Assembly (NCBI RefSeq): GCF_045037415.1
Contig: NZ_CP173438.1
Direction: 5' to 3' (one strand)
From: Escherichia coli
Lineage (GTDB): Bacteria; Pseudomonadota; Gammaproteobacteria; Enterobacterales; Enterobacteriaceae
DNA length: 64,000 nt
The stretch's first letter is position 1. Each line of letters starts with the position of its first letter. The position numbers and the translations under genes were made by a program. Below are positions 36,071 to 36,154 of the stretch, in pieces. Below the pieces are notes generated by a model. It ran no database searches, was not told where the DNA came from, and saw nothing but the letters and a program-made list of their open reading frames with translations.

Positions 36071-36098
36071 TCAGATTCGTTTTATAGCGCGAAGTTCC
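36071..36098 (-). promoter_or_regulatory. sigma-E-type promoter of degP
   Basis: Minus strand reads GGAACTT (plus 36092-36098), 16-nt spacer, TCTGA (plus 36071-36075), ~45 nt upstream of the degP ATG; GTAAA-containing Cpx-like repeats lie further upstream. Confidence 0.7.
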
Positions 36099-36154
36099 GA
36101 ACTAAAGTTTCTGCAAAAGGTAAAAATTTATTGTTCGTCTTTACAAAAGCCTGG

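Follow-up and report, generated by a model that had tools for sequence, protein, structure and literature searches.

The degP promoter region of an Escherichia coli chromosome: a conserved sigma-E promoter, an upstream GTAAA block and a thermometer-family leader

The DNA analysed here, a 64-kb stretch that we call the window, belongs to the E. coli chromosome. When 501 bp from around the promoter described below served as query, 5424 of 5426 complete E. coli genomes matched, with at least 99% identity in 5415 of them, where RefSeq annotates the two genes of the locus as 'dgt: dGTPase' and 'degP: serine endoprotease DegP'. The remaining two genomes gave no match, and three matches to the dgt-degP region fell on records labelled as plasmids. 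The DegP protein encoded in the window is 99.4% identical to that of K-12. Both genes lie on the minus strand, with dgt upstream, and are separated by an intergenic region of 129 bp (36026..36154) whose A+T content is 64%, compared to 48% for the whole window. The stop codon of dgt is 11 nt from a putative CpxR block. The features of the region are listed here, with positions relative to the transcription start in parentheses.

34601..36025, minus strand: degP coding sequence, 474 aa, ATG at 36025; RefSeq 'serine endoprotease DegP'
36020..36065, minus strand: degP leader, match to the HtrA 5' UTR thermometer (Rfam RF02700)
36065, minus strand: transcription start (+1, an A), transferred from K-12 position 180844
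36071..36075, minus strand: sigma-E -10 element TCTGA (-10..-6)
36076..36091, minus strand: 16-nt spacer CGCGCTATAAAACGAA, containing TAAAAC at 36084..36079 and the dinucleotide GC at 36090/36089
36092..36098, minus strand: sigma-E -35 element GGAACTT (-33..-27), identical to the Rhodius et al. 2006 consensus
36102..36117, plus strand: predicted 16-bp CpxR-like site CTAAAGTTTCTGCAAA (-37..-52), A/T-rich, directly next to the -35 element; PSSM prediction only (PMC9600279 supplementary file 3)
36120..36144, minus strand: proximal CpxR block GTAAAGACGAACAATAAATTTTTAC (-79..-55), 25 bp of the form GTAAA-N15-TTTAC that holds box degP1; putative binding
36144..36130, minus strand: listed CpxR box degP1 GTAAAGACGAACAAT (-79..-65; PMC9600279 Table S1)
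36280..36294, minus strand: distal CpxR box degP2 GTAAATTACCGTCAG (-229..-215), inside the 3' end of dgt; putative binding (PMC9600279 Table S1)
36155..37672, minus strand: dgt (dGTPase, 505 aa), the neighbour upstream of degP; open reading frame and RefSeq annotation

Read on the minus strand, the DNA upstream of degP runs ...TTAGTTC GGAACTT CGCGCTATAAAACGAA TCTGA AGAAC A CAGC.... Within it, GGAACTTCGCGCTATAAAACGAATCTGA (36098..36071) has the form GGAACTT-N16-TCTGA, with the degP ATG 45 nt downstream of it. An earlier note on this DNA had placed an intact sigma-E promoter of this form within 36071–36110, and we confirm it, adding the minus strand, which that note left unstated. The element is the sole exact match to GGAACTT-N16-TCTGA on either strand of the window. 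Dinucleotide shuffles gave a mean of 0.01 matches, with any match at all in only one of 100 shuffles; a chance match is ruled out by this low expectation together with the conservation of the motif described below. Transcription of degP is reportedly sigma-E-dependent, a finding attributed to Erickson & Gross 1989 and Lipinska et al. 1988.

The consensus for sigma-E promoters is GGAACTT and TCAAA with a strongly preferred 16-nt spacer (range 15–19 nt), a discriminator of 5 or 6 nt, and 26 or 27 nt from the -35 element to the start, 25–28 nt being accepted (Rhodius et al. 2006, PMC1312014). With the start transferred from K-12, the degP promoter fits this model in its -35 element, its -10 element, its spacer length and its start-site distance. 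TCTGA agrees with TCAAA at three of five positions (the T, the C and the final A). An A/T-rich, UP-like region is also known for sigma-E promoters (PMC1312014), and the region from -34 to -60 here is consistent with one, at 70% A+T versus 48% in the window. DegP was placed in the core sigma-E regulon by the same work (Rhodius et al. 2006, PMC1312014).

At 20935..20908 on the minus strand, a second sigma-E-type promoter, GGAACTA-N16-TCGAA, was seen inside the rseP open reading frame and approximately 0.9 kb upstream of the 810-aa bamA open reading frame. We take it to be, in all probability, the known sigma-E promoter of bamA. Its architecture is like that of the degP promoter; it differs in having one mismatch in the -35 element, in lying within a coding region and in lacking a CpxR block.

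The transcription start was placed by comparison with K-12, for which a published genome-wide map lists a single degP start, 180844, followed after 40 nt by the ATG (180884); TGCAGAAACTTTAGTTCGGAACTTCAGGCTATAAAACGAATCTGAAGAACA is the 51-mer that has this start as its last base (Kim et al. 2012 TSS table, PMC3415461). The window and K-12 align here without gaps, so that K-12 180844 corresponds to window position 36065. On this transferred start, the discriminator is 5 nt from the end of TCTGA, the distance from the end of GGAACTT is 26 nt, and the leader is 40 nt long. The discriminator, the spacer and the -35-to-start distance all match the values of Rhodius et al. 2006, and the geometry of the start therefore fits a sigma-E promoter. 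Two statements of the earlier note bear on this position. It had the promoter at the expected distance upstream of degP, and it had proposed a comparison of the -10/-35 pair with the mapped start; the two proved consistent. The match to the Rfam thermometer model RF02700 begins exactly at the same base, 36065.

Over 211 bp around the promoter, aligned without gaps, the window and K-12 MG1655 are identical at 209 positions. The K-12 promoter, degPp, has the same locus, -35, -10, spacing, leader and CpxR block, and differs only at two adjacent spacer bases, which are GC in the window and AG in K-12 (CGCG versus CAGG, at 36090/36089). Of the 5424 matched E. coli genomes, 4020 matched an 80-bp query with the window allele at 99% identity or more, and 1384 matched the K-12 version at that level; the spacer allele of the window is thus the commoner one in E. 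coli.

Reviews cite degP as regulated by both sigma-E and Cpx. A compilation of 41 known CpxR sites lists two for degP, degP1 and degP2 (PMC9600279 Table S1), and both are present in the window. The same paper gives degP inductions of 26.6-fold in cpxA24 and of 32.4-fold when NlpE is overproduced (PMC9600279). The GTAAA repeats that the earlier note had described upstream of the promoter do exist; they lie at 36120..36144, beyond the end (36110) of the interval given for them, and they form an inverted pair rather than simple repeats. One GTAAA reads in the sense direction at 36144..36140 and the other in the antisense direction at 36120..36124, so that these are inverted half-sites around a central ACAAT, not tandem ones; following the degP1 box come AAATT and then TTTAC. 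CpxR footprinting at degP is said to have been done by Pogliano et al. 1997.

The arrangement GTAAA-N15-TTTAC occurs nowhere else in the window (0.03 expected). Measured against the direct-repeat form GTAAA-N5-GTAAA, the degP1 box has three mismatches, with a perfect first half-site and two of five bases in the second, and the degP2 box has two mismatches. Matches to this form with two or fewer mismatches number 74 in the window, versus approximately 50 expected. We dropped such loose counts as Cpx evidence, since matches of this kind are frequent in the window; the case for the Cpx boxes consequently rests on conservation and the literature rather than on motif counts. Like cpxP and other CpxR-activated promoters, degP has a perfect GTAAA half-site less than 100 bp upstream of its start and is strongly Cpx-induced. 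The box of cpxP is the perfect direct repeat GTAAAACAACGTAAA; in degP, by contrast, GTAAA-N5-ACAAT comes before an inverted GTAAA, and the polymerase reading the promoter carries sigma-E.

We surveyed conservation in other Enterobacterales, sampling loci by a coding-sequence anchor alone, a degenerate DNA pattern for the DegP peptide FQQFFGDD, in a collection of species-representative genomes. There were 61 pattern matches, of which about 20 were unrelated or non-enterobacterial and were removed after tblastn. Besides the window, 38 Enterobacterales degP loci had upstream DNA. They represent three families, Enterobacteriaceae, Erwiniaceae and Yersiniaceae, with the genera Escherichia, Citrobacter, Salmonella, Atlantibacter, Trabulsiella, Yokenella, Pantoea, Mixta, Serratia, Yersinia and others.

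A -35/-10 pair was found in all 38 loci, with a 16-nt spacer in 36 and a 17-nt spacer in two. The elements [G/T]GAACTT and TCT[G/C/T]A, allowing at most one mismatch in each, were present in 37 of the 38; only the endosymbiont Serratia symbiotica departs from this, with TGAACAT. The -10 form TCT[G/C/T]A itself was kept in every related locus (38/38). The exact E. coli pair GGAACTT/TCTGA recurs in Citrobacter, Salmonella arizonae, Atlantibacter, Trabulsiella, Yokenella, Entomohabitans and Serratia proteamaculans. It is also carried by the DNA upstream of K. pneumoniae degP, GGAACTTAGCGTTATAAAATGACTCTGA, where GGAACTT-N16-TCTGA is adjoined by two mapped starts (Kim 2012 table). When 16 representatives were aligned on the -35 element, mean column identity was 0.96 in the -35 and 0.93 in the -10, and fell to 0.49 directly downstream and 0.57 upstream of the CpxR block.

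The GTAAA block could likewise be recognised in all 38 loci, starting 43–46 nt upstream of the -35 element. Both GTAAAG and the terminal TTTAC were kept in 37, and the block of S. symbiotica is degenerate. The conservation of envelope-stress control elements that the earlier note had asserted from a single sequence is thereby borne out, for the sigma-E pair and the GTAAA block alike, in 38 of 38 Enterobacterales loci. The distance from the -10 element to the ATG, by comparison, varies fourfold, from 45 to 196 nt. A near-fixed distance from block to -35 across three families, while leader length varies to this extent, argues that CpxR may act directly on the sigma-E promoter complex.

The long leaders are found in Yersinia. 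In several Yersinia species the CpxR block and the sigma-E promoter lie together 183–196 nt upstream of the degP ATG; other Yersinia have 71–82 nt here, and E. coli has 45 nt. Such a difference would imply an insertion of approximately 110–120 nt in the longer leaders.

We conclude, with little doubt, that the sequence is degPp, which serves E. coli degP (htrA) as its native promoter, with three stacked controls: sigma-E, CpxR and a thermometer in the leader; no observation spoke against the core of this reading. The elements, their geometry, the identity with K-12, the conservation and the Rfam match come from this analysis; that the promoter depends on sigma-E, that CpxR binds it and how it activates, and that the leader acts as a thermometer in E. 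coli are taken from the literature or by inference. In the mechanism we propose, failure of OMP folding would release sigma-E, whose RNA polymerase would recognise GGAACTT and TCTGA, 16 nt apart, and begin transcription at 36065, yielding the 40-nt leader. Phosphorylated CpxR would bind the GTAAA block at -79..-55, its half-boxes centred near -72 and -62 and so presumably on the same face of the helix, and would boost transcription, probably as an upstream activator of class I type working with sigma-E polymerase. The leader would then fold into a short fourU hairpin with UUUU paired to the ribosome-binding site, and translation should rise with temperature.

The sigma-E/Cpx promoter of degP is already-known biology, as the earlier note had said of it. 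Indeed degP is a textbook gene under both envelope-stress pathways, and the window has a common E. coli allele. The locus has value for calibration, in that a sigma-E promoter was correctly recognised from sequence alone. Mildly new are comparative points only: the CpxR block and the -35 element keep a near-fixed distance, and Escherichia has two substitutions of its own, through which a second promoter may have been lost and the thermometer made weaker.

The second promoter enters through the strongest of the alternatives to a purely sigma-E-driven degP, a sigma-70 promoter that overlaps the sigma-E promoter, uses the spacer hexamer as its -10 and starts at 36072 with a 47-nt leader. It might be the main driver of degP or an extra one, and perhaps the one through which CpxR acts. 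There is precedent in relatives. Salmonella htrA has three starts, with leaders of 40 nt, 47 nt and 215/449 nt, the 40-nt form having first been seen only under stress; the second, with the 47-nt leader, precedes the sigma-E start by 7 nt (PMC5602114), which puts it on the G of TCTGA. One K. pneumoniae start maps exactly on the G of TCTG. The spacers of Salmonella and K. pneumoniae both contain TAAAAT, whose last T precedes that G by 7 nt, which is the geometry of a sigma-70 -10 element, and an A/T-rich, -10-like hexamer persists in Serratia and Yersinia even though the rest of the spacer has diverged. Cpx activation of degP was reportedly found to be only partly sigma-E-dependent (a result ascribed to Danese et al. 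1995).

The E. coli sequence speaks against this alternative. Its hexamer is TAAAAC (36084..36079), with a C at the normally invariant position -7; the form TAAAAC is shared by E. coli, E. albertii and E. whittamii, while Salmonella, Citrobacter, Klebsiella, Yokenella and Atlantibacter have TAAAAT. No -35 element could be recognised for it, and a sigma-70 scan of 35800..36500 was empty on the degP strand. The K-12 start table, moreover, has only 180844 for degP and none at 180837. An overlapping sigma-70 promoter is accordingly unlikely in E. coli, and we give it a small chance of contributing to degP expression as the main or an extra driver.

Less probable still is that degP is transcribed mainly by read-through or from promoters inside dgt, with GGAACTT-N16-TCTGA incidental, given a motif expected by chance 0.01 times, conserved over three Enterobacterales families where its flanks are not, with the mapped start falling where the motif predicts and no start near 180669 in the K-12 table. 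Some observations do lean towards it. A consensus scan of 35800..36500 found no terminator-like site between dgt and degP, so that minor read-through into degP is possible. Salmonella has a far-upstream start inside dgt, giving leaders of 215 or 449 nt (PMC5602114), and E. coli keeps a TATTAT at 36253..36248, 7–8 nt upstream of the position equivalent to the Salmonella start with the 215-nt leader, with the distal CpxR box (36294..36280) just upstream of it. Together, TATTAT and the distal box inside the 3' end of dgt (36248..36294, minus strand) could be a CpxR-dependent upstream promoter.

With sigma-E and CpxR as the preferred transcriptional controls, there remains the third, in the leader, whose RNA thermometer family (RF02700) had gone unmentioned in the earlier note. 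The leader matches RF02700 with 77 bits versus a gathering score of 52 (E = 1.3e-15), over model positions 1–46 of 46. The degP upstream regions of S. arizonae (78.4 bits), E. whittamii and two Citrobacter species match the family as well; those of Atlantibacter, Yokenella, Trabulsiella, Tenebrionibacter, Serratia, Pantoea, Yersinia and the UBA3516 MAG gave no match. In Salmonella, the htrA fourU thermometer lies within the 40-nt leader, and reporter assays and SHAPE have shown that it hides the Shine-Dalgarno sequence (SD) at 30 °C and leaves it exposed at 42 °C (PMC5602114). Salmonella htrA resembles E. coli degP in its GGAACTT-N16-TCTGA, the distance of its CpxR block, its 40-nt leader and its match to RF02700. 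It differs in having TAAAAT for the TAAAAC of E. coli, and U for the C of E. coli at leader position 32.

The second of these differences falls in the hairpin. Leader position 32, for which the consensus is U, is C in Escherichia (window 36034), turning the lower-stem pair 7-32 from A-U into A.C; Salmonella and Citrobacter have no A.C mismatch in the hairpin. Formation of the consensus hairpin is still possible with this mismatch. Predicted hairpin energies at 30 °C (ViennaRNA, computed without the A.C pair) are -4.4 kcal/mol for E. coli, -7.4 for Salmonella and -8.6 for Citrobacter. For the SD, the pairing probability is predicted at 0.3–0.6 in E. coli compared to over 0.9 in Salmonella and Citrobacter. 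The minimum free energy of the E. coli leader at 37 °C is -3 kcal/mol, no more stable than that of shuffled sequences (z = 0.69). By its sequence, the degP leader is clearly homologous to the HtrA thermometer family. Thermometer function in E. coli is plausible, and these folding predictions suggest that it may be weak.

A more speculative reading joins the two Escherichia-specific differences. Two derived substitutions, C at 36079 and C at 36034, might have rewired degP control in Escherichia relative to Salmonella, Citrobacter and Klebsiella; we regard this as possible and lean against it. If it were true, a sigma-E-independent second promoter (P2) would have been lost and the RNA thermometer would have become much leakier, leaving E. 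coli degP more strictly dependent on sigma-E and Cpx, and less on translational temperature sensing. The Escherichia-specific differences could also explain why one degP start is found in E. coli compared to two in Salmonella and Klebsiella.

Three further features of the window were noted away from degP. The t44 RNA (Rfam RF00127, 83.5 bits) at 27816..27902 on the minus strand is the only other Rfam match in the window; the gene downstream of it we take to be rpsB. The yaeI gene is absent: K-12 positions ~184246–185087, holding yaeI and its flanks, have no counterpart, and yaeH and dapD are separated by 124 bp (32575..32698). Lastly, a four-gene chaperone-usher fimbrial operon (a fimbrial subunit, a PapD-type chaperone, an usher and a MrkD-like adhesin) occupies 49529..54433 on the minus strand between fhuA and mrcB, genes that adjoin each other in K-12. 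This operon is present in 574 of the 5426 complete E. coli genomes, with an IS inserted in several of the top matches.
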